From: Bilabrum cf. latius
Taxonomy: Eukaryota
Assembly: GCA_965178125.1 (NCBI GenBank)
Contig: OZ237759.1
Coordinates: forward strand, 806,001 to 870,000
Length of the DNA: 64,000 nt
Direction: 5' to 3'
Shown here: positions 1,123 through 64,000 of the stretch, one piece after another
How the letters are laid out: each line of letters begins with the position of its first letter
Numbering within the stretch: position 1 is the stretch's first letter
Program-made: the position numbers and the translations under genes
Notes under the pieces: model-generated
The model's database searches: none
What the model was told of the DNA's origin: nothing
The model's input: the letters and a program-made list of their open reading frames with translations, nothing else

Positions 1123-2277
1123 TTAACAGCATCCTCCCTCAGCCTCCTCGGCCAGCCCCCCCCTGGCCGCCACCGCGACCCTCTCGTGGTCCTCCCTCTT
1201 GGCCCTCTTGGCGTCCTCGTGGGCCTTGAAGGCGCCAGGGTGCGCCCCGATGCTCTTCACCAGCGTCTAGATCGCCTGCTCCACGTTGTCTCCCGTCTTG
1301 GCGCTCGTCTCGACGAGGCCGACGAAACCGTTCCTGGTGGCGTACTCCTTGGCCTCGTCCATCGAGACGTCCCTCCTGTCGGCGAGGTCGCTCTTGTTGG
1401 CCACCAGCAGGACAGGCAGGGGAGACCCGTCGGGGAGAGTTACCTTGGATCGGATCTCATTCTTCCACTGCGCGCGGGAGCGACAAGAGGGAAAGGAGGA
1501 GGGGAGTGCCGACAGCAAGGCAAACGACTGCCACCTGGGAGGCGGGTCATTCAAGACCAAGACCGATTTACGGGCCCGCGCATGAACACATTATTTGATC
1601 AGCTGTACTCACCACTTCGATAGACTCGAACGATTTCTTCGAGGTCTAGTCAAACACCAGCAGAGCTCCAAACGCGTCCCTATAGAATACTCGAAAGATG
1701 GCGCCAAAGCGATCCTAGCCTGCAACACAAATATATAGCGGTGTAACGACGTGGACATATAAGCTGTACGACTGAATTGGTCGGGCAACGGATGAGAGCA
1801 GAGCCTGCCTGCTTACCAGCAACGTCCCAACTGCGAGGTGAGATTGCTTGGTCATGACATTGGACGAGTTTCGGCACGAATCGCGTTGCCATCAACGTGT
1901 AGACAACACAGTGATGTCACTCACAGCTAGAGGGAGCCACGTATTGTCCCAACGTCAAACTATTTAAGGTGAAAGTCCACGCCCACGGTGGGCTTCTAGT
2001 CGTCGGCAAAGTCATTCATGATCGACCTGCAAGGAGAAGAAGCCGATAACACGGTAATGTTGCATGCCGTGTGATATTGGTTGCTGCAGTGCGTTGTCCG
2101 CGCCTGCAAGAGGCGCCAGACACAGCAACGAGAATCTCAGCTTTTGCTGAACGGCAGTCGAGCTGCACCTTACCGCTTAATTATACTAGTTTTCCCAACA
2201 TCATGGTCACCAATGACCAAAATCTTCAACACTACGTCTCTTTCACCGTCGTCATCCACTCCGCCAGCAGAGGCCAT
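1123..2277 (-). CDS. RAB32: Host Rab GTPase, Rab32/38/29-like (multi-exon)
   Basis: KILVIGDHDVGKTS, KPTVGVDF, WDVAG/QDRFG, WKNEIRSKVTLPDGSPLPVLLVANKSDL, ETSAK. Reading through TAG at 1267-1269 gives the C-terminal prenylation motif GGCC followed by TAA at 1123. Confidence 0.85.
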
Positions 2278-2367
2278 TGCAAAGTGAGAACAATGTCCTT
2301 CGCTACAAATTCGAAGATGAGGATATCGCCTTTTACATCGCAGAGAGATGCGTTCACATAGCAAATC

Positions 2368-4044
2368 ATGGCAAGAAAGGGACGAAATAATAATAATCGT
2401 CGCTCAAATAGTAGACGTGGAGGCAGGGGTAGAGGTGGAGGTGGTCGTCGGCAAGGTGGGCGGGGTGGACCAGCCTAGGCTCAAGGCGGAGGTGACAGTT
2501 GGTAGTCGAATGGGGGTGGTGGCGGCCATGGTGGCAGAGGTTCATCTAGAAGCCGAAGAAGAGGGGGCAAGGGGCAAAATAAGGGCCATGGCGGAGGTGG
2601 TAATGGTGGTGGAGATGGCAACGGTTGGAATTATCAAGGCGGAAGCGGGTGGGATACATCCTCCGGCGGCGGCAGCGGTGGCTGGGAGCAAAACCATGGA
2701 GGCGGACCAGATTATGGCAACGATCATAGCAGTGGCCCATCATGGGCCGATTCCGGTGGAGACTGGGATGGAGGAGAAGGATGGCAAGGACGCGGTAGAG
2801 GCAGGGGCAGAGGCAGGGGCAGAGGCAGAGACAGGGGCAGAGGTAGGGGCAGGGGCAGAGGCAGAGGCAGGGGAGGATACCACGACTACGGCGGGGGTTG
2901 GCAGCACAATGACTCGTACGGCGGAGGAATGGATGGGGACGGCGGCGGGGGCTGGCCGGCAGGGGCTGGTGAAGGAGACAGCGGCTCGGGCCGGGCAGAC
3001 ACTGGCACTGGGGCAGGAGGAGGCTGGCCCGGCGGGGGCGACGGGGGCTATGCTCCTAGCGGCCCCCGCCTTGCGCATGCGCCTGTGGAAGTGAAGCTCG
3101 AGCCGGGCTCGAACCTGGGAACGGTGCCTCCAGAACAGGCCGCGGATGCCGCTGGTCGAATCCCGTGGGAGCTGCAGGCCAGCTCTGCCGTTGCCTCCGA
3201 CTCGATGTGCAAGCCGCCCGCATGGCGCCTGACCTGCTACACTCCCCATGGGCGCTGGCTCAGCACCCAAGGGGACAGGCTCTTGATGCAGCACGGTGGC
3301 AACCTCCTGGCGGGCGACGTGTCCATGGAAGAAGCCAGGCTCATGGCTTACCAGAGGGGGGCTCCCCTGGAGGACATGAGGGTGTTCCCCATGACGGCAG
3401 ACACGGACCTGGGTCCGATGCGAGCCGCTGCTGACAGGTACGAGGGCACTCTGGAGAGGCAGCGGGCGCGGGTCGTGGAGGAGCTGGTGCGGCTCGGAAG
3501 TGACGTGGCTGGCGCTACCTCGGCGGGGCCTGGGCCGGTGGTGGTCGCGATGGCCAGAGGGGGGGAGCCCACGGGGACAACGGGTGCATTGCATGGTGGT
3601 GCTGTGGGTGCCGGTCGACCGACGAGCCTCGCAGCCGCCGATGCGACAGCCGCTATCGCTGCCATTCGGAGCAAAGGAGGATTCGAGGAAGATGAGGAGG
3701 ACGACGAGGAAGGTTTAGGCGATGAAGGCGCAGGGGCGTCGGAATCCAAGTCAGATGGGGGTGACGGGACCGCGAGCCCAACAAACGCTGCGGCTGGGGT
3801 TCCAGGGGGCAGCACAGCTGGCTCGTCAGCCGAGCAGGAGCACTCCACGGAGGGCATCGATCCCGCTGACGGAAGACTCTACGGCCGCACGCATGCCGCT
3901 GCCAGAAAGTGGCTCGAGCTCGTCGTGCAGAAGGACCGATCGATCCAGGTGCGGACCATCCCCGAGGTGGCTCCTGAGGCGCCGATGCTGGACCCCAGGT
4001 TTGGGCAGAGTCTGGTGCAGGCGCTGCAGCGGGCCAGGTCGTGA
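2368..4044 (+). CDS. Host Gly/Arg (RGG)-rich protein, NUP42/NUPL2-like C-terminal part
   Basis: One frame from ATG 2368 to TGA 4044 when TAG is sense; RG repeats; WRLTCY...GDVSMEEARLMAY and IPEVAP resemble NUP42/NUPL2 motifs from memory. Confidence 0.5.
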
Positions 4045-5510: not shown

Positions 5511-5611
5511 TGTTATCCGCCAAAATGTGTGTAGTTTTTATATAAGTAAACTCTATTTCTACTATATAGTAGAAATAGAGTTATCATAACTCCACATTTT
5601 GGCGGATAACA
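5511..5611. repeat. Left terminal imperfect hairpin (101 bp)
   Basis: 19-bp outer arms TGTTATCCGCCAAAATGTG / CACATTTTGGCGGATAACA, 34-bp perfect central palindrome (5549-5582), unequal 19-nt and 10-nt mismatched segments. Confidence 0.95.
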
Positions 5612-7000
5612 TAAGAGGTCAATATTAACCACTTCACAACATCTTAAGCCGTAGTCCTTCATAATGTCCTTCACTTGAACATAATAATTTAATAGCTATT
5701 TATTCATATATCTACCTAATTTAATACCTTCGCGCCGTTAATGTCTATCTGTTAGACCTTTACTTTACTTAATCTGTTGAGTGAATCCCTAGCCTAAGTC
5801 TTAGGATATGCCCGCCCGAAATTGCGGAAATATATAGTCATTTAAGAATATATGTTCGCAATTCTGGGCGCGTAGGTGTATTGAGTTTTATATTATGATT
5901 TGGTTTTAAGTATCAATTGACATTTACCACTTTAGAAAATAACTAAATAAATACTTAAAGAGATTGACAGAAGTATTAAAGTCTTTTTAATACTTCCAAT
6001 GAAAAATTTAAATTAATAAATAAAACTAAACTAATATATCAACTTAATTTATCTCTTTTTTTATTACTTGTCAATCTATACTTAAATAATTGAATATTTA
6101 AATATAACTAGAAGGAGATATTAATCACTTTATAAAGTCTTTTATATGTCATCTCTTCAAAACTTCAAATATAAGGGTATCCCCTTAAAAATACATTCTT
6201 TTATCTATCGCCCGAAATTGCGGTAATATTATAGCTATTCAAGATATATTTCTGCAATTCTGGGCGCGTAGGTGTATTGATTTTTATTTTTCATAATTCT
6301 TTAAATATGTTAAAGTCCTTTGTTTGAGTATATGATATAAAGGAATACAAAGCGGGATAACTTAAAAATGATAAATGTTTTGACGATGACTTTAAAATGA
6401 CTCAATGAACTGGTTTATGTCAAGTGTATTACTTTGAAATGATTAATCACTAGATTAAATGGAAAATATAGGATAATAAAATATGGTATAGTATAATACT
6501 AGCGCCCGAAATTGCGGTAATATATTAGGATATTAAGATATATTGTCGCAATTCTGGGCGCGTAGGTGTATTGAGTTTTATATTTTGTTAATTTTGACAT
6601 AGTTATCTTATAGAGGTGTAATTTTGTAATAAAGATATTTCTAGTATGTGCTATATTAAATGTCCAGAAATGACGGCCCGAAATTGCGGAAATATATAAG
6701 TATTCTAGAAATTATGTCCGCAATTCTGGGCGCTTAGGTGTCTTCAATAATTAATAATCAACTGCTTCTTTATTTTGATTAATTTTTTTGACTTACCGTT
6801 CATTTTATTGACCACTTAACGGGATATCACAAAAAGACTTAACCACTTGACGAGATATTTTAAAATAACTAATAATAAATATGACCGCCCCAAATTGCGG
6901 AAATATATAAGTATCAAGAAAATTATGTTTGCAATTCTGGGCGCGTAGGTGTCTTCAATAATTAATAATCAACTACTTCTTTATTTTGATTAATTTTTTT

Positions 7001-7279
7001 GACTTACCGTTCATTTTATTGACCACTTAACGGGATATCACAAAAAGACTTAACCACTTGACGAGATATTTTAAAATAACTAATAATAAATATGACTTAC
7101 CGTTCATTTTATTGACCACTTAACGGGATATCACAAAAAGACTTAACCACTTGACGAGATATTTTAAAATAACTAATAATAAATATGACTTACCGTTCAT
7201 TTTATTGACCACTTAACGGGATATCACAAAAAGACTTAACCACTTGACGAGATATTTTAAAATAACTAATAATAAATAT
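7001..7279 (+). repeat. Three tandem 93-bp repeats in the left TIR
   Basis: GACTTACCGTTCATTTT...AATAAATAT starts at 7001, 7094, 7187; a further copy at 6790; one copy in the right TIR. Confidence 0.9.
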
Positions 7280-7393
7280 GACCGCCCCAAATTGTATCTC
7301 CAGATATGACCGCCCCAAATTGCGGAAATATATAAGTATCAAGAAAATTATGTTTGCAATTCTGGGCGCTCACCCGTATTCAATTTTACATAT

Positions 7394-7603
7394 TCACTAA
7401 CTCATACCACTTGAAGTGGTCCATTTGATCTTGTGTTCATATTTAGAATGTCCTTTAACTTGTATCAATGTATTGAGTACTTCTTCTAACTAGTCCTTAA
7501 CAAATGATTTTGTCTTATGATATGTCTTGGTAGTCTTCACCTATTTAATAACTAATTTACAAGTCTTACCGACAATATACTAAGTTAATAAATCTTGTAT
7601 CAT
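7394..7603 (-). CDS. Virophage small hypothetical protein (69 aa)
   Basis: ATG 7603 to TGA 7394 with four in-frame TAG; back to back with the 7612 gene. Confidence 0.45.
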
Positions 7604-7611
7604 AATATATT

Positions 7612-8019
7612 ATGTATGAGATAATTATTGATGGATTCAAATATAAACCCTCTACTCGTAGAAATAAGAAATATGATGTATTCAAAAATGGTAAGTATAT
7701 CACTAGCTTTGGTGATGCACGATATGCTCAATACTTTGATTTGATTGGTAAGTATGGAGATAATAACCATATTGACCCTAAAAGACGACGCCTATACTAC
7801 CGAAGACACGGGAAGACTACCGATACTAATAGCTCAAAATATCACAGTCATAAAATCTTATGGGGAAGTGATAATGCTATTAAGGACTACTTAACAAAAC
7901 TAGCCAATGGAGTATTAGATGTAAAAAGGTATGTTAAAGGGGATACTTTGGAAAAATGGTTAGATGACTATAGGTCTAAAGTGGACGCAAGACTGAAACA
8001 ATTAAAAATATTAAATTAA
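7612..8019 (+). CDS. Virophage basic protein, possibly DUF5754-like
   Basis: KKYDV...SFGDARYAQY...HIDPKRRRLYYRRH...SHKILW pattern recalled from giant-virus and virophage proteins; family name unverified. Confidence 0.7.
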   Translation: MYEIIIDGFKYKPSTRRNKKYDVFKNGKYITSFGDARYAQYFDLIGKYGDNNHIDPKRRRLYYRRHGKTTDTNSSKYHSHKILWGSDNAIKDYLTKLANGVLDVKRYVKGDTLEKWLDDYRSKVDARLKQLKILN

Positions 8020-8176
8020 AAAGTCAATACGCCTACGCGCCCAGAATTGCGAAAATATATCTTGAATAGCTATAATATTACCGCAATTTCGGGCGCCCAA
8101 ATTTGAATCGAGCTTAAGACATCTCGTTTAATTAGACTTAAAAATAATATATTATTATAGTATATACTATATTATA

Positions 8177-8710
8177 ATGTGCTATAAATGTCGTAACTTC
8201 ATAATCAATAAGCTAAAGATTAATGACTGGAATAAGATAGCCCCTCTATTAATACCAGCTGGAGAGACTAGAGAAGAAGACGGAAAGTGTATCTGTGACC
8301 ATCCAATAAAAAAAATCAACTTCGTTAAGTATCCCCCAACTGGTGATATATTTAAATTAGGTTCTGAATGTATTAATAATACTTTCGACTCTGATCATAA
8401 AGTGTATATGGCTTGTATGTATAAGACTTGTGATGTATGCTCTTGTGTTGTTAAAAAGTCAAGTTATAGCAGTCATATTAAGTCCATCAAACACGAAATG
8501 AATGAAGACATATTAAAAGAGAAAAAGAGATGCACTGATTGCGAAGACTGGATTGAAAAGACCTCTTGGAAAAAGACTTGTCTTAGTTGCTATTACAAAA
8601 AGAAAGGATACAAATAGTGTAAAAGGTGCGAGAGGTATCTATTAAAACCTGATACCACTTATTGGTATTGCTTTACATGCTACTCTAAAAAGAAGAAATA
8701 TAAGAAGTAA
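8177..8710 (+). CDS. Virophage multi-zinc-finger protein (177 aa)
   Basis: Several CxxC pairs and a C2H2-like HIKSIKH; TAG at 8615-8617 read through gives another CKRC...CFTC unit parallel to the preceding CTDC...CLSC; TAA at 8710. Confidence 0.8.
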
Positions 8711-8767
8711 TACTCGTTTAATTAACGCCAATATATACTATTAAATTACATATATTTAATAATATAA

Positions 8768-9433
8768 TTAAGTGGATGTCTTAACCTTAGACTTCTATTC
8801 TTTTAATTGCTTTCTTTTAAGTCTTCGTCTTTCGTTTATCTTGTCTTTATTCTTGTGATAGTAGTCAAGAGAATATTTTTTTAGTTTTTCTTTATTATTT
8901 TCTTCGTACTTTTTATGATTTTCTTTTATTTTGTCTCTATTTTTGTCTCTATACTACTGCATCATTTCTTTATTATTCGAATACTTTAGATTTTGACGTT
9001 CATTTATAATATGTCTATTCTTTTCGGCGTATAGTCTTTGCTTAGCGACTATATTGCCTCTATTATCATCATAGTATTTTCTCCATCTTTTCTATCTCTA
9101 TTCTTTTGTCTCATTGTAATACTCTTTTCTAGTTCGTCCTGCAATACACTTATTGACACATTTATATTTCCTGATATACCCTCCTTCAATCTTGCCTAAC
9201 TCTTCTCTATCTTTGCACGGACATTTTTCTACTAATTCAATTTTTACATCACCTAAGTCATAAATAATGAATGAAGTAATAAAAGGATATTCTCCTTTCT
9301 TATAATTCTTATAGTCTTTTGTGTGTCCTCCCTTTCTCTAGCTCAATGTCTAACAAGTAGAGCCATAATATACTTTTGAAGGATCATTAAGTGAGTAAAG
9401 TCTGTATATCTTTGCATTTGAGAAATTTACCAT
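8768..9433 (-). CDS. GIY-YIG endonuclease (221 aa; absent from ORF track)
   Basis: MVNFSNAKIYRLYS...VYIGSTC[TAG]TLS[TAG]RKGGH...IELVEKCPC...IEGGYIR...CVNK, followed by a charged helical tail; TAA stop. Confidence 0.9.
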
Positions 9434-9531
9434 TGTTTAAGGTTGGTTTATATTGTTATTAGTTGTTTTATCTTTAAGTCAATGTGTGTTTTATTCTATT
9501 AAGTTATTTTCGCCACTATATATATATAGAT

Positions 9532-11187
9532 ATGTCAAACAAAGGCAAGACATACACTAGAGGTAAAATATCATACACGTACGGTGATAAGCCAACAAAA
9601 AATCAAAAAGATAGTGATGATTTAGACGCCACTATTAAGGGACTACTTGATAAAGGGTTTGAAGAGGTGCCAACCACCAAAGCTAGTATTAAAAAGCTAC
9701 CTTTATACTCTTATATATCGTACATCTCAAATATCAAGGGAAAGCCACTATTTAGAAGAGGTGGGGTAATTAACTCAATATAGAAGGATGGAGACTATTT
9801 TACCTTGTATAACCTAATAAATAAAGTTCATTTTAGTGTTCAATAGTCTAACCTTGTTCGCCTTTTTTATAAGATGACTAAAGCTTAGACAAAAAAACTT
9901 AATAAACCAACCGGTAAATTAATAGAAATAGAAGACAAACCAAAGAAAGACGAATTTAAATATAAGCCAATATTAAAGAAACTATATTATGAAGAAGGTA
10001 ATGTAGTCAGTCGTGATGCGTTATATGACCTAGCTAGACAAAAAGATAGGAGAATAAAACGAAGACAAGTTGAAAAGTGGTTAAATGGCCAAATGCTACA
10101 CTAGCTCACGAAAAAACGACCTAAACAGTCAGCAGTAAGTTCTTTTGTACCTACTAAGCCTTTCTCAATTTACGCATTGGACTTAATAGACATGCAAAAG
10201 TATTCAGACACTAATGACGGCTATAATTGGATATTAAATATAATGGATATATTCACAAAATACCTATGGAGTATTTCATTAAAAGATAAGACATTAGTTA
10301 ATATAATTCGTGAGATGAAGAAACTATTTAAGAAACCTAATTGGAGAAAACCGACTGTTATGTTAAGTGATAATGAGTTTAATAAAGAGGCATATATTAA
10401 ATTTATGAATGACAATGACATAAAACCACTATTCACCATCGCAGGAAATCCATAGTCTAATGGTGCAGTTGAAAGACTTAATAGGACTATAAAAGAATAG
10501 ATTAGAAAAGACTTTGCTATTAAGAATGACAGTGATGGTGTTTGGCATACGTCATTATAGAGACTAGTAAGAGCTTATAATAAGAGAAAACACAACACTA
10601 TAGGAATGTCTCCAATAGAAGCAATGAAACCTGAAAATTTAGAAGTAGTTAGATCTAGAATTGAAAATAAGAAATTATCAAATAATTTTGACGGGAATGA
10701 TAAAGATCTTAATGTAGGGGATAGAGTTAGAGTATTACTTGAGAAGAACAAGTTTAAAGGGAATTTATTCAATTGGTCTAGAGAAGTCTTCACTGTTAGA
10801 TAGAAGACCAAACCAAGAAATCCTAAGTAGAGGATTAAATATAAAGTAATGGACAAAGAGGGAGAACCTCTTACTGGATTCTTTAATGCTTCACAGTTAT
10901 AGAAAATAGACAATGTAGAACACGAAGATAAGGTAAATGATGACATAGACAAGGAAAGTGAAGAGCCTGAAATTGATAATGTTGAAGGTTTAGAAGTAGA
11001 ACCAGACACAATAGAGAAGTTTTTAGATAAAAGACAAAATAAAGATAGACTTATTGAATACTTAGTCAAATATAAGGGATATTCTAATAAGTTTAATGAA
11101 TGGATTACCCGTAAGAAATTAGAATAGGATTATGGGAAAGACCAAATACGACCACTTGCGAAAGACTATTCTGATAGATAGAGATAA
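9532..11187 (+). CDS. Retroviral-type (rve) integrase with C-terminal chromodomain (551 aa)
   Basis: DLIDM...DIFTKY...SDNEF...P[TAG]SNGAVERLNRTIK DDE core, YNKRKHNTIGMSP, VGDRVRV, chromodomain IEKFLDKR...EYLVKYKGY...NEW; a single frame once TAG is sense. Confidence 0.95.
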
Positions 11188-11417
11188 TTAATCTAGTAAT
11201 ATACTTTATGGCATAATACCAGCGCCCCAAATTGCGATAATATATTAGGATATTAAGATATATTTCCGCAATTCTGGGCGCGTAGGTGTATTGATTTTTA
11301 TAATTTTATCATTTTATGTTAGCCAGTGTATAGATACGACTTTTGAAATATTAATTTTTTCTAGTATTTACCATATTAATATAAAACAAAGTCAAAGAAA
11401 TTATTTATAATAAGTAT

Positions 11418-12098
11418 ATGGAATTGTTAAATATAACAAGATACAAAAATAAAGACCTTCTAAAAAGAGTAGTCAAGTTAAGTGAAAAGTACAAGTGGTC
11501 TCGTGATGACTTAAAAATGTTATGGATTAACAAGCATTATTCAAGTTTATAGGGTGAAATAGATGATGAAGGGGACGAGATAGCAACTATAAATTTAGTG
11601 AGACAACCGTCTAAAATAGAACCTATCTAGTTAAAACCTCCACAATTAGAACGACAATAGGCTATATTGGAAGATGTTGAATTAGATAGCGAAGACATAG
11701 AGGATAATAAAGAGGAAGACTATTTGAATGATACATATAGTGATACAAGTAGTGAAGTAGTGAGTGAAGTCATTGAAGAGAAACCAATTAAAGAGAAACC
11801 AAAACCAAAAATCAATATTAGTGATCTTACAGTGAGTGATAAACCTGAATATGTTTATTGTGTAGAGATTAATGATACAAAGGTATATTTTAACAAAAAG
11901 AATACTTAGACTTATCCTGATGCTTTAAGAAGAGGTAAATCACACGCTGATAAAATGAGAAAGCGAGTATTAGGACATCTTCATTTTGATGAGACCGATA
12001 TGTATGACAGCAACTTATGGTATGCTAAAGTGTGCTGGGGTGATAGTGATAAAATTCATGATAACTTTACAAAGTTTAAAAATATCTTATTAAAATGA
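11418..12098 (+). CDS. Virophage hypothetical protein (226 aa), acidic linker, C-terminus loosely similar to the 7612 gene
   Basis: ATG 11418 to TGA 12098 with four TAG; KVYFNK...HADKMRKR...YAKVCWGDSD resembles ...HIDPKRRR...HSHKILWGSD. Confidence 0.7.
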
Positions 12099-12117
12099 CC
12101 ACTATATATATAGGTAA

Positions 12118-12624
12118 ATGAAAAACACAATTTGGAAGTTTTTAAATGAATACTTTGATGTCTTTAGTTTAATACTTAAAATACGAGACGAAAACCCTAG
12201 TGATGTCATAAGTACTATAATAGCAATGTATGAAGAGAGTGAAATAGAAGATCCAAAAGAGATCCATAAACATATGAGTGAAATTCGTCATAACTTGGAA
12301 CTTAGATTTAAAACAAAGTATGTTGAAGTATTAAGCACAGATCACGATGACAAAGCAGAAAGTTATCTCCATCTTAATAATATATTATGTAATATTGAAG
12401 GAGAGCAATATGTGGAGGATAGCAAAATCAAGATGTCCGAGAAAAAACAAGTATTTATAAAGACTTACGGTGATATGGATAAAATCAACGAGACTGTCCA
12501 AGAGATGGAACAAGAAGACGAAAAGACTAAAACAGGAGTAGAAAAAGAAATAGATCAAAAGTTAAGTCTATTATGTAATACTTCTAAACAACCAGACAAT
12601 ATTTGTCTAGATTATAAATTGTAA
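12118..12624 (+). CDS. Virophage hypothetical protein (168 aa)
   Basis: Clean ORF, TAA stop, preceded by the CCACTATATATATAGG leader motif. Confidence 0.7.
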   Translation: MKNTIWKFLNEYFDVFSLILKIRDENPSDVISTIIAMYEESEIEDPKEIHKHMSEIRHNLELRFKTKYVEVLSTDHDDKAESYLHLNNILCNIEGEQYVEDSKIKMSEKKQVFIKTYGDMDKINETVQEMEQEDEKTKTGVEKEIDQKLSLLCNTSKQPDNICLDYKL

Positions 12625-12751
12625 TATCAGTATGTATTTTAATTATAAAAATACAAATTGACAGGTTAGATACGACCGCCCCAAATTGCGGAAATATTAT
12701 AGCTATTCAAGATATATTTGTGCAATTCTGGGCGCGTAGGCGTATTGACTT

Positions 12752-13388
12752 TTATATGGAATAGCCAAGGTCTAGAGTCGAACGAAGCTTATCGTGAAGC
12801 TATTCGTAAGTATTATAAATGTAATAGCTAGAAGGGTTCAACTCTTTGATATAAGAGTTACGGTCTTCTAACATAGACTTCTATTTATCTACTTTCTAAT
12901 TCTTTAAAGTCTTCTAGAATAGTGAATTAGATGGAAGACATACAACTATACTTTCTTTTTTAAATAACTCATTAGCTAGACTTAACTCTTTAGTAAAGAA
13001 TATTACTCTCTTCTCGCTACCTTCATTCAACCAGTTATCTTTTACCCATTGAAGGGCTTCTTTACTGGCTTTTCTATTAAGTATATTATAATTACCCCAA
13101 TCACTTTTTAACTTACATTCGTCTAGTTTCATAAGTAATTCGGGCTCCTAGACATATACTCCTAGAGTACTATCTAAATCAACAAGTAAACAGTCTTTAG
13201 AACTAGACCGTAATATTTGACAAGCGGTAGACTTACCACTACCTTCAGGCACACAGATACATATTTTTTTACGTTTATGTAAAGGTTTATCCCATAACCA
13301 CTACCAACAAGACATACCACCAGAGTATGCTAGAGGTAGTAAGACACTTAAACCTCCTACAACGACACTGCTTGAACTGATTCCATCC
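12752..13388 (-). pseudogene. Virophage P-loop NTPase/kinase-like gene (212 aa) with start codon split by the Ngaro insertion
   Basis: ICICVPEGSGKST and LLVDLD; joining 17877 to 13388 rebuilds AAAATG GAT GGA (MDG...) in frame to TAA at 12752. Confidence 0.75.
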
Positions 13389-16300
13389 TAATGCTAACGC
13401 CGAATGGGGTTCGGGGTTGATGTGGCGATGCGTTCGAGACTCGAACACAGGCTCCGGTCTACCAACGCGAGGTTGCAACCGCCAGTGCGACCAGCAGCTT
13501 GCGAGGCATTCCCTCGTCTCCTTCCTTAGGGAAGGGGGCGGGGCAGCGCGGCAGTGGCCGTTCCGGCTCATGCCGTTGTTTTGTTTAGTATTTATGTTCG
13601 GTTTGGTGCTCACACGGGTAGTGCTTAACGCCGTGTCAACTATCGCGCGTGTCCATGTGGGTCCGTTCGGCCTACATCGTGCATCCATCCTCGGCCTACT
13701 TGGCGCTCCAGTGGATCCGAACCAATATTTACTTCGATGTGATCCATCTTTCTCGGCACATCGATGGGACTTCGGTCCGTTGGGCTCGGCTGCTGCTTGC
13801 GCCACGGTCTCCCGGGTGTGTGCTCGCCGATGGCATTTTCGCGCGATCTCTGCGTCCCTCCCTTTCGTACTTGTTCCTACGCACGGCCATGCATGTAGAA
13901 ACATATTCAAATGGTTCGATCTTACGGTTTTCCGACGACCCAGCCTTTCCGTTGGCGAGGCGCGCTCCGCTTTTCCGGTCGCACCTCGAAAGCAACCACT
14001 TTCGGCCAGATCAGCCATCGTACCAGGATACAGCACGATTTGCACCTATCGAGTGACTGATCATTTGAATTGTGCAGGGTGGGCACGTAGTCAGCTTGGA
14101 CTCCATCGTCCTCTGGCTGCCGACGACAGCAGGCTCGGTGAGCCTTCGTCATCGTCCAGACAACCCTGCAGCTCGCACCAGGCGTGCGTGCAGGAGGTCG
14201 AAGCGAGCAGCGCGGTGTGGCGCAGCTCGTAGACGGAGGCCGGCCTGGAGCCTGGTCGGTTGACGCAGCATCAGTGGTGGGCTGGTGCTGTGTCTTGCGC
14301 GGGTGCCGGAGCTTGGCCACGGTGGCCTGCTGCTCCCTGCGCCCCACGCGCAGTTCCTCCCGCTCCGGCGGATGAGTCAGCAGTGGCACGTTGCCACCGG
14401 CTGACGACGACAGCAGGCTCGGTGAGCCTTCGTCATCGTCCAGAAAACCCTGCAGCTCGCACCAGGCGTGCGTGCAGGAGGTCGAAGCGAGCAGCGCGGT
14501 GTGGCGCAGCTCGTAGACGGAGGCCGGCCTGGAGCCTGGTCGGTTGACGCAGCATCAGTGGTGGGCTGGTGCTGTGTCTTTGCGCGGGTGCCGGAGCTTG
14601 GCCACGATGGCCTGCTGCTCCCTGCGCCCCACGCGCAGTTCCTCCCGCTCCGGCGGATGAGTCAGCAGTGGCACGTTGCCACCGGCTGACGACGACAGCA
14701 GGCTCGGTGAGCCTTCGTCATCGTCCAGAAAACCCTGCAGCTCGCACCAGGCGTGCGTGCAGGAGGTCGAAGCGAGCAGCGCGGTGTGGCGCAGCTCGTA
14801 GTCGGAGGCCGGCCTGGAGCCTGGTCGGTTGCCGCAGCATCAGTGGTGGGCTGGTGCTGTGTCTTGCGCGGGTGCCGGAGCCTGGCCACGATGGCCTGCT
14901 GCTCCCTGCGCCCACGCGCAGTTCCTCCCGCTCCGGCGGATGAGTCAGCAGTGGCACGTTGCCACCGGCTGACGACGACAGCAGGCTCGGTGAGCCTTCG
15001 TCATCGTCCAGAAAACCCTGCAGCTCGCACCAGGCGTGCGTGCAGGAGGTCGAAGCGAGCAGCGCGGTGTGGCGCAGCTCGTAGACGGAGGCCGGCCTGG
15101 AGCCTGGTCGGTTGACGCAGCATCAGTGGTGGGCTGGTGCTGTGTCTTGCGCGGGTGCCGGAGCTTGGCCACGATGGCCTGCTGCTCCCTGTGCCCCACG
15201 CGCAGTTCCTCCCGCTCCGGCGGATGAGTCAGCAGTGGCGCGTTGCCACCGGCTGACGACGACAGCAGGCTCGGTGAGCCTTCGTCATCGTCCAGAAAAC
15301 CCTGCAGCTCGCACCAGGCGTGCGTGCAGGAGGTCGAAGCGAGCAGCGCGGTGTGGCGCAGCTCGTAGACGGAGGCCGGCCTGGAGCCTGGTCGGTTGCC
15401 GCAGCATCAGTGGTGGGCTGGTGCTGTGTCTTGCGCGGGTGCCGGAGCTGGGCCACGATGGCCTGCTGCTCCCTGCGCCCCACGCGCAGTTCCTCCCGCT
15501 CCGGCGGATGAGTCAGCAGTGGCACGTTGCCACCGGCTGACGACGACAGCAGGCTCGATGAGCCTTCGTCATCGTCCAGAAAACCCTGCAGCTCGCACCA
15601 GGCGTGCGTGCAGGAGGTCGAAGCGAGCAGCGCGGTGTGGCGCAGCTCGTAGACGGAGGCCGGCCTGGAGCCTGGTCGGTTGCCGCAGCATCAGTGGTGG
15701 GCTGGTGCTGTGTCTTGCGCGGGTGCCGGAGCCTGGCCACGATGGCCTGCTGCTCCCTGCGCCCCACGCGCAGTTCTCCCGCTCCGGCGGATGAGTCAGC
15801 AGGGGCACGTTGCCACCGACTGACGACGACAGCAGGCTCGGTGAGCCTTCGTCATCGTCCAGAAAACCCTGCAGCTCGCACCAGGCGTGCGTGCAGGAGG
15901 TCGAAGCGAGCAGCGCGGTGTGGCGCAGCTCGTAGACGGAGGCCGGCCTGGAGCCTGGTCGGTTGACGCAGCATCAGTGGTGGGCTGGTGCTGTGTCTTT
16001 GCGCGGGTGCCGGAGCTTGGCCACGATGGCCTGCTGCTCCCTGCGCCCCACGCGCAGTTCCTCCCGCTCCGGCGGATGAGTCAGCAGTGGCACGTTGCCA
16101 CCGGCTGACGACGACAGCAGGCTCGGTGAGCCTTCGTCATCGTCCAGAAAACCCTGCAGCTCGCACCAGGCGTGCGTGCAGGAGGTTGAAGCGAGCAGCG
16201 CGGTGTGGCGCAGCTCGTAGACGGAGGCCGGCCTGGAGCCTGGTCGGTTGACGCAGCATCAGTGGTGGGCTGGTGCTGTGTCTTTGCGCGGGTGCCGGAG

Positions 16301-17876: not shown

Positions 17877-17921
17877 ATTTTATTATATTAATAAAAAAGA
17901 TATTTCTATAATTAAACTCAA

Positions 17922-18644: not shown

Positions 18645-18887
18645 TACTTATAATATATTAGCTAGACTAGATATTTTTTTTTTAAATTACGAGATTTTAA
18701 AAAGTTAGTAGTATAAGATATAGTATAATACTAGCGCCCCAAATTGCGATAATATATTAGGATATTAAGATATATTTCCGCAATTCTGGGCGCGTAGGCG
18801 TATTGATTTTTATAATTTAGTCATTTTTAATATAGCCACCTCTTACAATGTAATATTTTTAAATTAAAATATTATAGTATATACCAT

Positions 18888-20330: not shown

Positions 20331-20369
20331 CGTATAATTATATTATGATAATAGATAATATTATTAAAT

Positions 20370-20813: not shown

Positions 20814-20847
20814 TATAATAAAGAACTATAATATTTCTTATTAATAT

Positions 20848-27989: not shown

Positions 27990-27994
27990 TTATT

Positions 27995-48804: not shown

Positions 48805-49213
48805 TCAGTACCTGTAGGTGGCGGGCTTGAAGGGACCCTCCTTGGGCATGTCCAAGTACTTGGACTGGTCGTCCGAAAGCTCGGACAGCTGCACGCCGAG
48901 CTTCTCAAGATGCAGGCGGGCGACCATCTCGTCGAGGCGCTTGGGCAGCACGTACACCTTGCCGCGCTTGTACACGGGCTCGCCGTCCTCGCCCTTGGCG
49001 TCCTTCTTGGTCCACAGCTCGATCTGGGCCAGGGTCTGGTTGGTGAACGAGTTGCTCATCACGAACGAGGGGTGGCCAGTGGCGCATCCCAGGTTGAGCA
49101 GGCGGCCCTCGGCCAGCACGATGATGCCGTGGCCGTCAGCGAACTGGAAGCGGTGCACCTGGGGCTTGATCTCCACCTTCTCGCAGCCGGGCTCCTTGTA
49201 CAGGTGCTCCATG

Positions 49214-49244
<31 letters not shown>

Positions 49245-50913
49245 CGATGATGGCGTTGTTCTTCATCTTGCGCATGTGGTCGATGGTGATGATGTCCTTG
49301 TTGCCGGTGGCGGTGATGAAGATGTCGGCGTCAGACACCACAGTCTCCATCCTGAGCACGGCGAACCCCTCCATGGCGGCCTGCAGGGCGCAGATGGGGT
49401 CGATCTCGGTCACAGTCACGATGCAGCCGGCGGCCTTGAGGGCCAGGGCGCAGCCCTTGCCCACGTCACCGTAGCCGGCCACCACGGCCCGCTTGCCGGC
49501 GAGCATCACGTCGGTGGCGCGCATGAGGCCGTCGGGCAGCGAGTGCTTGCAGCCGTACAGGTTGTCGAACTTGGACTTGGTCACCGAGTCGTTCACGTTG
49601 ATGCAGGCCAGCAGCAGCTCGTTCTTGTCCTCCATCTGGTAAAGGCGCTTGACGCCGGTGGTGGTCTCCTCGGACACACCCACGCACTTCTCGGCCATGC
49701 GGGTCCACTTGGTGGCGTCCTCGTCGAGGCCGGCCGCGACGATCTTGAGCACGTTGCGGAACTCCTCGTTGGTGGTGCTCGAGGGGTCGGGGCGCTTGCC
49801 GCTGGCGGCGAACTCCTTCTCGGCCTTGACACCCTCGTGGATGAGCATGGTCATGTCACCGCCATCGTCGACGATGATGTCGGGGCCATGGGTCTTGCCA
49901 TCGGCGCCCTTCCACTGCACGGCGTCCAGGGTGCACTGCCAGTACTCCTCGATGGTCTCGCCCTTCCACGCGAACACGCTTGAGGTCTTGGCGGCCACAA
50001 TGGCGGCGGCGGCGTGGTCCTGGGTAGAGTAGATGTTGCACGAGCACCACCTGATCTCGGCGCCGAGGGCGGCCAGGGTCTCGATCAGCACGGCGGTCTG
50101 CACGGTCATGTGCAGGGAGCCGCTGATGCGGGCGCCGGCGAGGGGCTTGTCGGCGTACTTGCTGCGGCACGCCATCAGGCCGGGCATCTCAACCTCAGCA
50201 AGCTCAATCTCCTTGCGTCCGAAATCGGCAAGGGCGGGGTCCGCGATGCGGCTCTCGATCTCTCCTGCACCAAAAGGTAGGAGGCAAGGGCAATATCAAC
50301 GCTTCGATGCTTCGAATGTACCTATGCAGGTCAAAACAATTCCTTGCGAGCGTTCAACAATCAAAAGCTCTTGGAGATTACAGTAGTCTTCAAGTAGTAG
50401 TGTCATGAAAGCGAATAGGGACGTTGATCCGCGCGACACGAATGTGAACAGTGGTTCCAAGAAGGAACACAACTAGTCAAGATGAAGCCGTAAGGACTTG
50501 ATGCCGAGGGCCGCGTCGGCCAAACATCTCAACATTAAAGTAATTTGACGTAGAAAGTAATCACCACAATGGGCTCCACCGGGCGGACATCACGATTCTC
50601 GCGGGTATAATCACAATGTCAGATCGCCAAAAGGATCTTGTTAGCTGCGAATCGCTAATCCACCGCATAGCGCAGATACATGCCAACAACATTATATAAG
50701 TGCTTCCAAATTATGACTAGGCTGTTCACCAGGCCACAACAAACGTCGCCAGCAACCACAAACACGAGGACAAAATAGGGAAGACATCGACGTCAGATCC
50801 TGGCAGACCCCATACCTCGCCATATCGCCAGTCTCGCAAGCACTCAGCTGCTATAGCATTCAACCGTATACACCAAGTATGCAGTATACCTCACCAGCTC
50901 CAGCGGCAGCCAT
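48805..50913 (-). CDS. AHCY: Host adenosylhomocysteinase (short first exon inferred, intron of about 625 bp)
   Basis: [55 protein letters not shown]; no TAG in the 460-codon track ORF. Confidence 0.97.
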
Positions 50914-51292: not shown

Positions 51293-53095
51293 ATGGCAGC
51301 GGTTCGATTTTCAGGGCCCTCCGGTTCAGAGAGCCTTCCCGGCCCCGCCAGGAAGTTCTACCGATCCATGGTGAATGGAGAAGTGTTTGAGATCGATGAG
51401 CGATACACTGGTCTGAAGTACATAGGCGGGGGCGCTTACGGATTCGTGTGTGCTGCATAGGATGCTGTGACGAAGAAGCGCGTGGCCATTAAGAAGATCA
51501 AGGATGTTTTCAGAGATCTGACAGATGCCAAGAGGATTCTGCGAGAAATCAAGTTGCTGCGTCATCTTGGTGGACACCAGAACATCATCTGGATTCTTGA
51601 CATCATGGTGTCGCCTCAGAAGCGGACCTTCCGCGACGTGTACATCGTCACAGACCTGATGGATACTGATTTGGCCCATATTATTGCCAGCCAGCAGACG
51701 CTCTCCGACTAGCACATCAAGTACTTCACGTACCAGATATTGCGTGGCCTGAAGTACGTGCATAGCGCGGGCGTGCTGCACCGCGACCTAAAGCCCCAGA
51801 ACATCCTGTGCAACGCCAACTGCGAGCTGGTCATTTGCGATTTTGGGCTGGCGAGGGCCCTGGGCAGGAGGGGTGGGGGTGACGGGCGGGGAAAAGGGAA
51901 AGACGGCGAGGGCGAGGAGGGCGACATGTACGCGGTGGGCGACCTGACGGCGTACGTGGTGACCCGATGGTACAGGGCACCAGAGCTGCTGGCGCAGGCG
52001 AGCTCGTACGGAGGAGCCGTAGACATCTGGAGCGTGGGGTGCATACTGGCTGAAATCCTGGGGCGGCGTCCGCTGTTCCCCGGCCGCCAGTTCAAGCAGC
52101 AGCTGCAGATGATCGTGGACATGATCGGTACCCCCTCCGACGAGGAGATGTGGTTCATCCGCAACTCGGCCGCCAAGCGGGTCATCCTCAGCATGGGCAA
52201 CCGCACGCAGGCGGACTACAGCAAGATGTTCCCCCACGCAAACCCAGAGGCCGTGGACCTGCTAGACAAGATGCTCCGTTTCGACCCCAGCCGCCGCATC
52301 ACCGTCGAGGAGGCCCTGGCGCACCCCTACCTGGCCGACTACCACTACCCAGACGACGAGCCTTCTGCGCCCGCAGCCGTGCAGTTCGACTTCGATCGCA
52401 TGGGCAGGCTGAGCAAGCCCTTTTTGCAGGCGCGCATGGTGGAGGAGATGCGCGCACACATCGAGGCACACGGAAAGGCGGCCGCCACGCCAGCTGGGGA
52501 CGGGGACGCGCGGGTGGCAGCGAAGGAGGAGGAAGAGTCTGCGCGGCGGGAGGAGGAGGCTAAGGAGGCGGAGGCAGGCCGCATCAGAGCGGAGGAGGAG
52601 GCGCGCCGGGCTGCAGAGGCAGCCAGGCAGCAGGCCGCCTCGTCCGCGCTGGGGGTGCTGGGAGGCGGGATGCCCCAACCGGCCACTGCCGCTGCACCCG
52701 CGCCAGCACCATCACCAGTCCCCGTTCCGGCCCTCACGCCGGCTGGTGGTGCAGGTCCCGATGTGGTGTCCCGCCTCGAGTCAGCTCTGGACCGCAAGGT
52801 GGCCCAGCTGGAGCAAGCCATGCGCTCCACTGTGCACGAGGAGGTGGAGCGCGCCGTGACTCCTTCAAATGCTCGCTTAGATCGCTTGGAGAGAATGGTG
52901 GAGGCCCTTGCCGCAGGAATGGCGGCTGGATCGACTTCAGCCGCATCATCGGGTGCGGCGATCGGAGGAGCCGCCGCGCCCGGGCGGGGGGTGAGGTTTG
53001 TGGATACTTCGGCGGAGGCCTCCGATGGAGATGGCGTCGGCAAGCGCAAGTTCCCTGCGACGCCCCTACCGCCCAAAGGAGAGCGCGAAGTTTGA
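51293..53095 (+). CDS. Host mitogen-activated protein kinase
   Basis: [43 protein letters not shown]; two TAG read through; start approximate. Confidence 0.93.
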
Positions 53096-60742: not shown

Positions 60743-62296
60743 ATGTCTGCAGATATTGCAGTTGGACTGCTGGCAGGTATAACTGCCACCTTCGCTGCTC
60801 TGAAACGATCGGGAATTCCGAGATTATCCGCAGCACCACGTACTTCTGAACAGCCAACATCTGTGCCAGCTTTGGAGCCTCGAACAATAACTGGCAGAAA
60901 TCACGGCACCATTCGCCGAACTGTAATGCAAGAGTTAGATGGCATGAGCGTGGATCAGCTCAAGGAGCGGGTTGTCAAGGAGCACCTTGCGCGGGTTCGG
61001 GGGGCGCAGGATTCTCGTATTGACATGGTATCACTGTACAACGAAGCCGGTTGGCCAATGCGAACGATTGGAAAGGTAAAAAGTGGGTTTTCAACTCGCA
61101 GAGGAACGCCCCGGCAGGCGTTGCTGTGTCCTTCGGTGCGGGCGACGATTGAGTTTGAATCATGGGTGCAGCCAGGCTGTCTGGAGCAGCTGGGGCATTT
61201 CTCTCATGTATGGGTAGTATTCATTTTCCACGGGAATACAAATGCTCATAAGCAGACTAAGTTTCGGCAGAAGCAAAGCGGCAAGTCGCAGGCCCAGCGC
61301 ATGAACGTGTCTGCGAAAGTGTAGCCGCCAGGTGCGTACGGGCAGAAAGTTGGCGTCTTCGCCACGAGAAGCCCCCATCGCCCGAATCCTATTGGGCTCT
61401 CGCTAGTCCGCATAATGGGGGTGAGTCGTCGCAGCCGCCCAAAGGGCAAGAAGGGCGCCGCTGCCGAAGCGTCGGACGGCTGGAGCCTGGCCGGGAGCGG
61501 GCCCGTCCGGCTGCACCTGGCTGGGTGCGACCTGATCGAGGGCACGCCAATCATCGATATCAAGCCGTACCTCGGCCCCCCGCTGGACGCTCCTCTGGGC
61601 GCGGCTGGTGGGCCCGAAGGTGCCTCAACCGCGGGCCCCGATCACGGCGCCTCCACCCCGAATACCACTTTCGCTCCCACGCCTCCGTACCGAGTGGCTC
61701 CCTGGGTGAGATCTGGCCTGCAGGGAGATGCGAAGGCCAGGGGTAGGGTGGTGTGCGATGTGCACCTCCCTTGGGAAGGTGGCTTGGAGGCAGCAGCAGC
61801 GCCCTCGATCGAGCTGCGACAGGCGGTGGCAGTCCTGAGAGAGGCACCTGGATACTGGCGAGGCAGGCATCATGACGGGCTGGAGGACTGGCAGGAAGCC
61901 GTGCGGGAGCTGCTGCAGCTAGACATTAGGTCTGTGTGGCAGGGGCGCGGGGGAGCTAAGAGTGGGGAAGGCAAGGGCAAGGGCAAGGGCAAGGGCAAGG
62001 GCAAGGGCAAGGGCAAGGGCAAGGGCAAGGGCAAGGGCAAGGGCAAGGGCAAGGGCAAGGGCTAGGACGCTGAGATGGAGCAAGGGGGGAGCCGCACAGG
62101 CAGCTCTGGGTCTGGCAGGTACCAGGAGTATGAGCTAGAGTACGATGGAGTAGGGCTGTTCATGGAGTTCACAGAGGCTGCCAAGAGGACAGGCGGGGAG
62201 AGCAGACCGCTGGTACGGGTGCAACAGGTGCTGCCGAGAGGACTCCCGCGCTCGGACGGAGCAGCCACTGGCGGTGCAGCGCGGGGGACCCTGTGA
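60743..62296 (+). CDS. TRMO: Host tRNA (adenine-37-N6)-methyltransferase TrmO/TsaA-like
   Basis: RRGTPRQ, FSHVWVVFIFH, AKV[TAG]PP, GVFATRSPHRPNPIGLS, DLIEGTPIIDIKPY. Confidence 0.9.
61970..62062 (+). repeat. Coding microsatellite (GGCAAG)n, about 15 units, poly-Gly-Lys
   Basis: Directly visible. Confidence 0.95.
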
Positions 62297-62824
62297 GATG
62301 AAGTGCCTTGCTGGCCGAGAGTGAGAGCGCAACACCACCTTCTCTCAGATCATCTGCACCGCATAAGCATCGCAACAAAGGCGATTATGTAAGAGCACCC
62401 AAACGGTGTAGCTTCGAGCTTCGGCCGCATGATCTGGCCGAGCACCGCCACGGCAGCTCCGAGAATTGTCGCAGAATGTCGCCGACAGATGCGAATTACT
62501 TTTTTTAGTTTTGCAAGTAGCTTGAGAGTTCAGGTTCTGAAACGGCAGGATCAGCATGCATACCTCTACACGTGAGTGCTTGTATTAAAAAACGCGGCGT
62601 GATCAATAGGGTTAATGGTCTATCGAAGGTGCATACGGTTGCCGGAATGAACTGGACCGCCTGAGTCAGTGGCTTGATTGATGCTCGTGAGAAGACACTT
62701 TTCGATCGATCATGCAGCACCACCTTGTCTTGCAGCAACAGTAAATTAGCGAAGGGCGCAGTAGGACCGAGTTCGACTTGCACAGGCAGGACCGCCAACA
62801 GGACGTGGACACGGGCAAGCTGTC

Positions 62825-64000
62825 GTGTTTGCAAATGCTATTCACGGCCTGGACCGAGGCGACGCACCGGGGCCACACCATGGGGGGATTATTGAAGCAT
62901 TTGGACAGGCATCGAAGGTTCCTACAACAACGGCGAATGACAAGACGCGGGTACGGATGCTTGCCAGTGGGATTCAATGGTGGCTTGTTGCCGTTGGGGC
63001 TATCGTCACTGTTGCGGTGCTCGCCGGCGTTTTGGGATGGTACTTTTCGAAGGATGATCCAAATGATTCAATCAATAGCATCATAGGCGCACGCCAGCAG
63101 CCAGTGACGCTAGAGGGGAGTATTGTCGCGGCGGGACTGGCCTCTCGCCAGCAAGACATTTCCGCGAATAGCGATCTTGCTCTGGATGCGTGCAGTGGTA
63201 TGGAGGAGGGGCTCGTTGTACCTGCCGGGTCATGCAGTATCCTTCTGATTGAAAAGATAGCCAGTCGCGATGAAGGCTCTGCATCCACCCGCAGGCGGGC
63301 CTTGCAGGTTGGTGAGGCTCAGACCAACGGCAGCCGCCATCGATTCACCTTCTAGTTGCGACTGCTGCCGCTGCACAGACCCGAGCTGGACGATGTTGAG
63401 CTTCATGCACTGCTGTGGGAGGCCTTATAGCGGGCAGTTGTATCCGGAGAGCTACTGGAAACGTTTCGCACCGCGGGCTCCGGCTCCCTCCAGGCACTCG
63501 AGGGCATCGCGGCACCGGCGCTACTCCTCGCAGTGCGGCAGCCATCGCCGACACCGGGTGCTGCAACCGGTTCCTCATCGCCAACAGCGTCATAGGGGGT
63601 ATCACCAGCGGTAACGCCCTCCAACACGCCTGTTGCAACGTTTGTAGCGGCATCGCAGTCGCCGGAGACATCCGTGCAGCCTCCAGAGCCGACCGCAGTG
63701 CCCCTCCCATCGGGGGATACCCAGCCCATACAAGTGACGCAGCCGCAAGTGCAGCTGGCCCTGAGCACAGAAGATAGCATCACTAGGCTGATTCGCACAT
63801 CATCCGGCCGCACCCCGCGGCCCGCTGGAGTCGCAGTCCCTGTGCCGTGCGGTAGGTCATACGACGGCCACGACTGGGAGTCGCAGCACCCGTGTCTGGT
63901 GCGCTTCAACTGCACCGGGGCCGGTAATGACCGCCTGTGTGGCGCTGAGCTTCCCATGATGGCAAACTACTCCTATTGGCTCGAGACGAGCGAGCTGGGG
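62825..64000 (+). CDS. Host membrane-anchored hypothetical protein, partial
   Basis: TM segment WWLVAVGAIVTVAVLAGVLGWYF; frame continues through TAG codons into an S/P/T-rich stalk toward the window edge; start uncertain. Confidence 0.5.

Follow-up and report, generated by a model that had tools for sequence, protein, structure and literature searches.

The 64-kb window analysed here (the whole stretch of 64,000 nucleotides from contig OZ237759.1, to which all counts and code inferences below refer) consists of eukaryotic genes and an integrated virophage, and in both of them the codon TAG stands within reading frames. Sequence of about 58% GC alternates with AT-rich blocks of about 30 to 34% GC across the window; the AT-rich sequence makes up one single element, a mavirus-like virophage with 16 open reading frames (ORFs), and the GC-rich parts hold the eukaryotic genes (Table 1). 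These are a Rab GTPase at the left end on the minus strand, a GH36/raffinose-synthase-like ORF, two FG-GAP repeat proteins, a TMTC-like membrane protein, electron transfer flavoprotein (ETF) alpha, encoded by ETFA, a nicastrin-like gene, S-adenosylhomocysteine hydrolase (SAHH), a mitogen-activated protein kinase (MAPK), an ankyrin/histidine-phosphatase ORF, phosphoacetylglucosamine mutase (AGM1), and a TrmO-like tRNA methyltransferase.

Eleven host gene models, which comprise 6106 codons and use RNA-supported introns where these are present, contain 25 TAGs in the coding frame and neither TAA nor TGA, and their two off-frames summed hold 39 TAA, 91 TAG, and 228 TGA. The 16 viral ORFs (5185 codons) have 74 in-frame TAGs, again with no TAA and no TGA, and each of their two off-frames has 186 and 402 TAA, 184 and 146 TAG, and 69 and 313 TGA, respectively; for host and virus alike, these off-frame numbers are ordinary. 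Together, the two sets show no in-frame TAA or TGA in 11,291 codons. Under a model of random decay, the probability that every interruption would be a TAG has a log10 of about -15 for the 25 host codons and about -44 for the 74 viral ones. Read from stop to stop with the standard code, the AT-rich blocks contain no ORF of at least 300 amino acids (aa). With TAG as sense they contain five (942, 638, 569, 484, and 330 aa), which carry Prim-Pol, MCP_V20_C, and rve/Chromo domains, while reading through TAA instead gives one ORF of 314 aa in the first AT-rich block and reading through TGA gives none of at least 300 aa. The earlier note on this DNA had placed in-frame TAGs inside conserved housekeeping genes, and all of its coordinates were borne out: those of ETFA, MAPK, and TrmO fall within Pfam domains (ETF/ETF_alpha for the single ETFA codon), and the TMTC-like and Rab genes have seven and six, respectively. 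The note had also described the code as that of the host nuclear genes, which holds insofar as host genes do use TAG as sense but is too narrow, as the integrated virophage uses it more heavily: TAG makes up 25 of 216 presumed glutamine codons in the host set (12%) and 74 of 207 in the virus (36%). No in-frame TAG is found in the SAHH, AGM1, nicastrin-like, and GH36-like genes; TAGs at 57767 (AGM1) and 46350 (nicastrin) had been considered as in-frame candidates and were dropped, being intronic or out of frame.

Transcripts were compared over positions 42700-60100, to which four of the 24 runs listed as containing the region were mapped, namely, one run of collinear DNA (X1) and three further runs (X5, X6, and X7), the contigs of which come from two studies and bear organism labels differing from that of X1. 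Because the contigs of X5, X6, and X7 have GT..AG joints that X1 lacks (44280>44381, 45786>45904 on the minus strand, 46403>46517, 51084>51274, and 57755>57842), they are spliced transcripts, though X5 was automatically labelled 'probably DNA'. None of the four runs has alternative letters or indels over this stretch, and 10 of the 25 host TAGs (7 in the TMTC-like gene, 1 in ETFA, and 2 in MAPK) lie inside RNA contig pieces with no differences, so that TAG is kept at these sites by the contigs of all three RNA runs and of the DNA run, with no CAG in its place. The remaining 15 host TAGs, in the Rab, FG-GAP, and TrmO genes, and the viral genes lie outside the mapped stretch. The introns defined by RNA joints contain none of the counted TAGs. 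These observations rule out editing to CAG, missed introns, and assembly error at the 10 checked sites, with the proviso that contigs may drop minority variants. Since TAG lies in conserved domains and is retained as TAG in spliced mRNA contigs, we regard it as virtually certain that TAG is a sense codon.

The amino acid was sought in alignments for which the queries were translated with TAG as X, whereas the query used to find helicase homologues had TAG as Q. For the virophage primase-helicase, 938 relatives were found among 1.84 billion representatives, and the best 100 of the 150 listed were aligned; the tally comprises 99 homologues of 25 to 38% identity, and a relative of 87% identity was left out. 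Three TAG columns are dominated by glutamine (residue 580, Q in 98/99; residue 355, Q in 91/98; residue 435, Q in 57/98), four are mixed (residue 27, K31 and S15; residue 239, D49 and N39; residue 292, E20 and K18; residue 373, N20 and E19), two consist mostly of gaps, and the last two are taken up below with the points that speak against glutamine. Overall, Q has a frequency of 29% at the helicase TAG columns compared with a background of 2.8%, which is a 10-fold difference. The Codetta-type inference that the earlier note had proposed as a check, run on the helicase, integrase, and TMTC-like alignments only, also gave glutamine. For these Codetta-like log-odds, columns had to be at least 50% occupied, and the pseudocount was set to 5. 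For the nine helicase sites, Q scored +9.3 bits and the next residue, K, -11.0, and in the control the window's own residue won in 20/20 classes; for seven sites of the integrase, aligned with 12 distant homologues of 25 to 32% identity, Q scored +10.0 and K, again the next, -1.1 (control, 18/18). Combined with five TMTC-like sites, the 21 sites gave Q +8.4 bits, with R next at -20.7, K at -23.3, and L at -27.7.

Individual motifs point in the same direction. In the integrase, GNP[TAG]SNGAVER corresponds to the PQ(S/T)xG motif, in which PDB alignments have Q in four of five solved integrases and R in the fifth. The two FG-GAP genes differ at just the codons at which the earlier note had compared CAG with TAG, and both of its codon pairs were confirmed: copy 1 reads TCC CAC CAG AAG ATC/ATT in five of its six repeats (AAA in the sixth) where copy 2 reads TCC CAC TAG AAG ATC, and copy 1 has TGC TCG CAG GGG where copy 2 has TGC TCC TAG GGC. 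In the Rab gene, the TAG of WDVAG[TAG]DRF falls on position 58 of the Pfam Ras profile. We take this codon to be at the switch-II catalytic Gln position, and that of SL[TAG]LWD is presumably at a site that is Q in many Rabs.

Gene ends were also in keeping with the earlier note, according to which the genes stop at TAA or TGA. All 27 ends in the window are TAA (15) or TGA (12), partly by construction of the models, with TGA prevailing among the 11 host models (8 TGA and 3 TAA) and TAA among the 16 viral ORFs (12 TAA and 4 TGA). Homology fixes several of these ends: the alignment of ETFA with human ETFA extends to residue 306 of 308, with TGA following, the Pfam AdoHcyase match of SAHH reaches residue 495 of 496 before the final YRY-TGA, Rab closes with GGCC-TAA, the TAA of the integrase stands at the alignment column where three relatives end, and the helicase ends two residues past the end of its 87%-identical relative. 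Together with the lack of in-frame TAA and TGA even in AT-rich viral genes, this supports the conclusion that TAA and TGA terminate and are not sense in the window. Considering the combined scores, the three conserved Q columns, and the paralogue pairs, we hold with high confidence that TAG means glutamine, as the earlier note had proposed, and that TAA and TGA are the only stops in the window.

A number of observations weigh against this assignment. The TMTC-like alignment (57 homologues, five sites), which is the sole host alignment with many homologues, scores Q at -10.9 bits, with R best at -0.6, no residue supported, and a control of 17/20, and its column at residue 416 is R in 53/56. Because the window's own CAA and CAG positions in this alignment also score best as R, the alignment is non-discriminating, and TAG behaves in it like the canonical Gln codons. 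In the helicase, the column at residue 597 is K in 72/98 and that at residue 680 is L or I in 93/98 (L52, I41). Glutamine likewise fits poorly at Rab VFD[x]T, as the earlier note had already remarked (I, V, and V in Rab structures), at the ETFA site (P, P, V, G, and G), at the first (T, M, M, Y, and Y) and second (D, E, E, D, and D) MAPK sites, at a TrmO site (R, R, and V), and at IKE[x]IR of the integrase (D, V, L, L, and V in PDB alignments). These poor-fit columns are variable or lineage-specific, and no other single residue accounts for them jointly. With regard to the reads, contigs lose rare variants, so that partial editing at TAG sites is conceivable.

Finally, the close relatives of the viral proteins, although they mostly have Q at the TAG positions, are not independent evidence. 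Of the 11 such positions in the helicase, the 87%-identical relative has Q at 8 and D, E, and K at the others; of the 12 in the integrase, relatives of 94, 78, and 75% identity have Q at 12, 9, and 10, respectively, and P, N, N, D, and K at the others. A public protein collection contains the capsid protein of the window, identical in every letter and translated with TAG=Q. It lies on an ENA contig of 48.6 kb on which the 94%-identical integrase also seems to lie, so that some pipeline already translates that contig with TAG as Gln and a second copy or strain exists. Because the collection holds a capsid translated in this way, the Q of these relatives may itself be TAG; their use as independent proof was dropped, and they were counted only for their non-Q residues, which form a polar spectrum. 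An argument for synonymy from the depletion of CAG in viral genes was also dropped, as a CAG share of 0.08 is not unusual beside the other NNG codons, whose shares run from 0.03 to 0.38. The tally of the TMTC-like alignment was set aside as well, since it favors no residue and its control for Q fails.

The columns that fit glutamine poorly are what would be expected if TAG were sense but encoded another residue (Arg, Lys, Glu, or Leu) or were decoded ambiguously by several tRNAs, which of all alternatives survives best and to which we still give only a slim chance. R dominates at TAG in the TMTC-like (53/56) and TrmO (2/3) columns mentioned above, K and L/I in the two helicase columns, and I/V at Rab VFD[x]T, and codes with UAG=Leu and UAG=Glu are known in other eukaryotes (PMC11687900). 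These columns do not agree on one alternative residue, and R, K, and L all score far below Q over the 21 sites; the three helicase columns with predominant Q and the FG-GAP pairs of CAG and TAG speak for glutamine directly, and the residues of the mavirus capsid at four TAG positions of the virophage capsid (D, K, N, and D) form a polar spectrum.

Slightly less probable still, and in our view an outside chance, is a dual meaning of TAG, which would be sense internally but end a gene when close to its 3' end; certain ciliates have context-dependent codes of this sort. TAGs do occur late in three genes, 2 codons ahead of the true stop in the integrase, 4 in the capsid gene, and 7 in the TMTC-like gene, and 27 genes are too small a sample to exclude rare or context-dependent use of TAG as a stop. 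None of the 27 requires TAG as its terminator, however, and all ends defined by homology are TAA or TGA. At the late TAG of the integrase, two relatives have a sense residue (N and K), and their last column is also that of the integrase, and about 1.2 late TAGs are expected by chance (22 viral ORFs, 1.4% TAG).

A further step down in probability, to a level that we consider very improbable, is the reassignment of both TAA and TAG (UAR=Gln), with TAA being merely rare. In its favor, UAA and UAG typically change together (PMC5304391, PMC11687900), as the earlier note had stated along with the rarity of a change of UAG alone, and reading both TAA and TAG as sense extends some ORFs of the AT-rich blocks. 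Because CAA outnumbers CAG by 123:10 in the viral genes (about 31% GC), a sense TAA should abound in the virus, yet TAA is found in 0 of 5185 in-frame codons compared with 186 and 402 off-frame. Moreover, TAA ends 12 of the 16 viral ORFs and 3 of the 11 host genes, among them the Rab gene with its GGCC-TAA, and the TAA of the integrase coincides with the end of its relatives. That the TAGs are not translated at all (pseudogenes, a dead virus, assembly errors, missed introns, or RNA editing to CAG) is hardly credible, as the RNA contig check, although it covers 10 of the 25 host TAGs and no viral genes and may mask minority edits, found TAG retained in spliced transcripts, absent from the introns given by RNA joints, and identical in the DNA run and the three RNA runs, and as TAG alone interrupts the frames and coincides with conserved Q columns.

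Our results therefore make it highly probable that a nuclear code with UAG=Gln and UAA/UGA=stop is shared by the host segment and the virophage. The organism would translate UAG as glutamine and use UAA and UGA as its sole terminators, and the virophage would be written in the same code as the flanking host genes. UAG would be decoded by a tRNA-Gln(CUA), whose simplest origin would be tRNA-Gln(CUG), and eRF1 would have lost recognition of UAG. C-to-T pressure in the AT-rich virus may then have turned CAG into the now-synonymous TAG, as suggested by its 36% share of glutamine codons there compared with 12% in the host set. Within the 64-kb window, a tRNA scan found zero tRNA genes, an Rfam scan gave zero matches, and the eRF1 gene is not among the genes.

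The window is a GC-rich stretch of 64 kb, has introns of about 86-190 nucleotides (nt), and houses a 28.7-kb virophage; in this it appears unlike a ciliate macronucleus. Iotanema spirale has the same codon table as the window, with UAG as Gln and only UAA and UGA as stops; in this organism, 204 in-frame UAGs were reported in 126 genes, with ends at UAA in 104 and UGA in 15 cases, and the proposed route was a tRNA-Gln(CUA) derived from tRNA-Gln(CUG) together with an altered eRF1 (PMC5304391), a route that the pattern in the window would fit. In contrast to Iotanema, in which stops are mostly UAA, the host stops of the window are mostly TGA (8/11), and the window is GC-rich nuclear DNA (about 58%) encoding an ETF alpha with an N-terminal presequence. 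With Iotanema, four lineages are reported to read UAG as Gln and to keep UAA as a stop, the others being the ciliate Protocruzia tuzeti and two lineages of phyllopharyngean ciliates. Further assignments on record are UAG=Leu (a rhizarian and some ciliates), UAG=Ser (Scotinosphaera), and UAA=Lys with UAG=Glu (one ciliate) (PMC11687900, PMC5304391). By its GC content and its genes, the window resembles none of the four UAG=Gln lineages. The UAR=Gln code (NCBI table 6) of many ciliates, hexamitid diplomonads, some ulvophycean algae, and other groups likewise reads a former stop as Gln, but, unlike it, the window has TAA at the end of 15 of its 27 genes and at none of its 11,291 in-frame codons. 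TAG-recoded bacteriophages ('code 15') resemble the virophage in that their genes are rich in in-frame TAG=Gln (PMC9523058); unlike these phages, the virophage is flanked by eukaryotic host genes that share its code.

The element itself carries a virophage-type double jelly-roll major capsid protein, which matches Pfam MCP_V20_C (E value of 3.2e-7, 30.4 bits with a cutoff of 27) and, over residues 68-540, the PDB entries 6g45 and 6g43, 'putative major capsid protein' (E value of 1.5e-15). We take these entries to be the mavirus capsid. The combination of an rve integrase with terminal inverted repeats marks it as an integrating element, and all its ORFs are intact under TAG=Gln. Matches of the candidate ATPase to AAA_22 (E value of 2e-4) and of the candidate protease to Peptidase_C57 (E value of 5.7e-3) are weak and below the curated cutoffs, and the penton candidate has no Pfam match; the penton-, protease-, and ATPase-like labels are tentative and come from gene order and motifs. 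A search of eight viral ORFs against PHROGs gave one weak helicase-like match, and the capsid protein had no match in IMG/VR, nor in a phage collection searched by tblastn. The 87%-identical helicase relative was also sought in IMG/VR and JGI metagenomes, with pattern matches only and no relative. Like mavirus and the endogenous mavirus-like elements of Cafeteria, the virophage is low in GC within a host of higher GC, is bounded by long terminal inverted repeats, and has an rve integrase, a primase-helicase, and a capsid gene as well as candidate penton-, protease-, and ATPase-like genes; unlike theirs, its genes need TAG=Gln.

In terms of novelty, the code itself was already known, while its carrier is probably a new lineage, and a virophage written in the variant code of its host is, as far as our searches go, new to the literature. 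These searches, largely without subscription journals or supplements, found no description of a virophage with a recoded stop codon and no report of a UAG-only Gln code in a stramenopile. Halocafeteria was weighed as a possible host and put aside, its host GC being 47%, and a paper on Phaeocystales deals solely with a plastid code in which UGA=Trp. We put forward tentatively, as something a little less likely to be right than wrong, that the window stems from an independent and unreported UAG-only Gln origin in an aerobic, GC-rich non-ciliate (perhaps a stramenopile), with the virophage and, by implication, its helper giant virus locked into the code. If so, the code change would both shape and isolate a three-level system of host, giant virus, and virophage. 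The virophage also offers a natural setting in which to ask if a change of code forms a barrier to viruses and gene transfer. The share of TAG among the glutamine codons of the virophage would imply a long residence in hosts with the same code, and the helper giant virus is predicted to tolerate or use TAG=Gln. Each further lineage with such a code also tests tRNA-Gln(CUA) and particular eRF1 changes as a recurrent route. In practice, gene calling with the standard code breaks many host genes and nearly every virophage gene, the latter because no ORF of at least 300 aa is open in the AT-rich blocks under that code.

Table 1. Genes and features of the window, with the in-frame TAG codons ([x] in motifs) and the stop codon of each gene
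Feature	Position	Strand	In-frame TAG	Stop	Remarks
Rab-family GTPase, 3' part	1123..2026	minus	6: 1996-1998; 1960-1962; 1927-1929 (SL[x]LWD); 1715-1717 (WDVAG[x]DRF); 1646-1648 (VFD[x]T); 1267-1269 (upstream of terminal GGCC)	TAA 1125-1123, directly after GGCC (from sequence)	Exons 2026-1925, 1830-1817 (14-nt microexon), 1719-1613, 1467-1126, splice sites from sequence; Pfam Ras on exons 3 and 4; Rab structures align to exon 3
Mavirus-like virophage	5593..34274				28.7 kb, about 30-34% GC; 16 ORFs, open only with TAG as sense
Terminal inverted repeats	5593-6897, 32970-34274				1305 nt, 100% complementary
rve integrase with chromodomain	9532..11187	plus	12, one at 10453-10455	TAA	551 aa; Pfam rve, Chromo
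Major capsid protein	25493..27379	plus	6	TGA	628 aa
Primase-helicase	29480..32278	minus	11	TAA	932 aa; Pfam Prim-Pol
80-nt module, copies named	8015-8094, 21774-21853, 24407-24486, 27427-27506, 28343-28422, 28927-29006, 33578-33657				
FG-GAP repeat membrane protein, copy 1	34366..36663	plus	3	TGA	CAG at SHQKI and LCSQG
FG-GAP repeat protein, copy 2 (5' end undefined)	37364..38899	plus	37439-37441 (SH[x]KI); 37697-37699; 37715-37717; 38165-38167 (LCS[x]G)	TGA	
TMTC-like membrane protein	42804..44757	plus	7	TAA 44755-44757	Intron 44281-44380
ETFA (electron transfer flavoprotein alpha, with presequence)	44871..46004	minus	1: 45474-45476	TGA 44871-44873	Intron 45787-45903
S-adenosylhomocysteine hydrolase (SAHH)	48805..50295	minus	0	TGA	Ends YRY-TGA; control for TGA as terminator
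MAP kinase	51293..53095	plus	51458-51460; 51710-51712	TGA	Both TAGs within Pkinase
TrmO-like tRNA methyltransferase	60743..62296	plus	61322-61324 (TrmO_N); 62063-62065 (past GK repeat)	TGA	

Several structural features of the virophage deserve mention in their own right. The identity of its two inverted repeats suggests a recent or still mobile copy. A direct repeat of 101 nt, 100% identical in its two copies, lies across both outer ends of the element (5511-5611 and 34256-34356) and shares 19 nt with each inverted repeat. Target duplications made by rve integrases measure a few bp, far shorter than 101 nt, and the direct repeat may be a duplicated target or reflect insertion into a repeat. 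A GC-richer insert at about 12.7-18.8 kb contains a 284-nt unit in 10 tandem copies (14011-16867) and split direct repeats (A1, 13381-13584; B1, 17369-17514; A2, 17507-17710; B2, 17731-17876). The insert probably resembles retrotransposons of the Ngaro/DIRS type, a type that is known from within the virophage elements of Cafeteria; neither a reverse transcriptase nor a recombinase ORF was seen in it. Such a nested GC-rich repeat element is a further likeness to the Cafeteria elements, and retrotransposons inside endogenous mavirus-like elements are the subject of PMC8547959. A conserved intergenic module of 80 nt occurs in 15 copies, which precede the majority of the viral genes and also lie inside the inverted repeats, and forms a hairpin, GCCCAGAATTGCGG ... 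CCGCAATTTGGGGC, enclosing an AT-rich core; it is likely a shared promoter or terminator signal.

Among the host genes, intron sizes in the window are about 86-190 nt. The 14-nt Rab microexon, predicted from sequence and bordered by cag and gtaag, is the source of LWDVAG in the switch-II motif, and with the microexon spliced in, the protein reads SL[TAG]LWDVAG[TAG]DRFG; a search with the last Rab exon against longer proteins gave no relatives. The 538-aa ORF was assigned to the raffinose-synthase/GH36-like family by a protein-cluster look-up, which gave no informative taxa. The TMTC-like label is based on the names of homologues (TMTC) and on their DUF1736 domains, as Pfam scans of the protein gave no family and none reached an E value of 0.1 on the first exon; its best named matches are from oomycetes, at about 30% identity, which is no more than a weak hint of a stramenopile host. 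At 617 codons, this protein stops short of a TPR region, which is typical of most of its named homologues, and its seven TAGs represent the highest TAG density among the host genes. At 50151-50520 on the minus strand, the SAHH ORF has no ATG ahead of the conserved N-terminal region; a candidate GT..AG intron of 62 nt would link an upstream ATG, and the RNA contig across this region is collinear. On the minus strand at 53221-56625, an ORF of 1134 codons is open only with nine TAGs read through, which stand outside the count of 25 host TAGs. It has an N-terminal histidine-phosphatase match that is weak (below the Pfam cutoff) and C-terminal ankyrin repeats, and its RNA cover is low: over 53.2-56.6 kb, X5 gives low cover, and X6 and X7 give faint cover or none.

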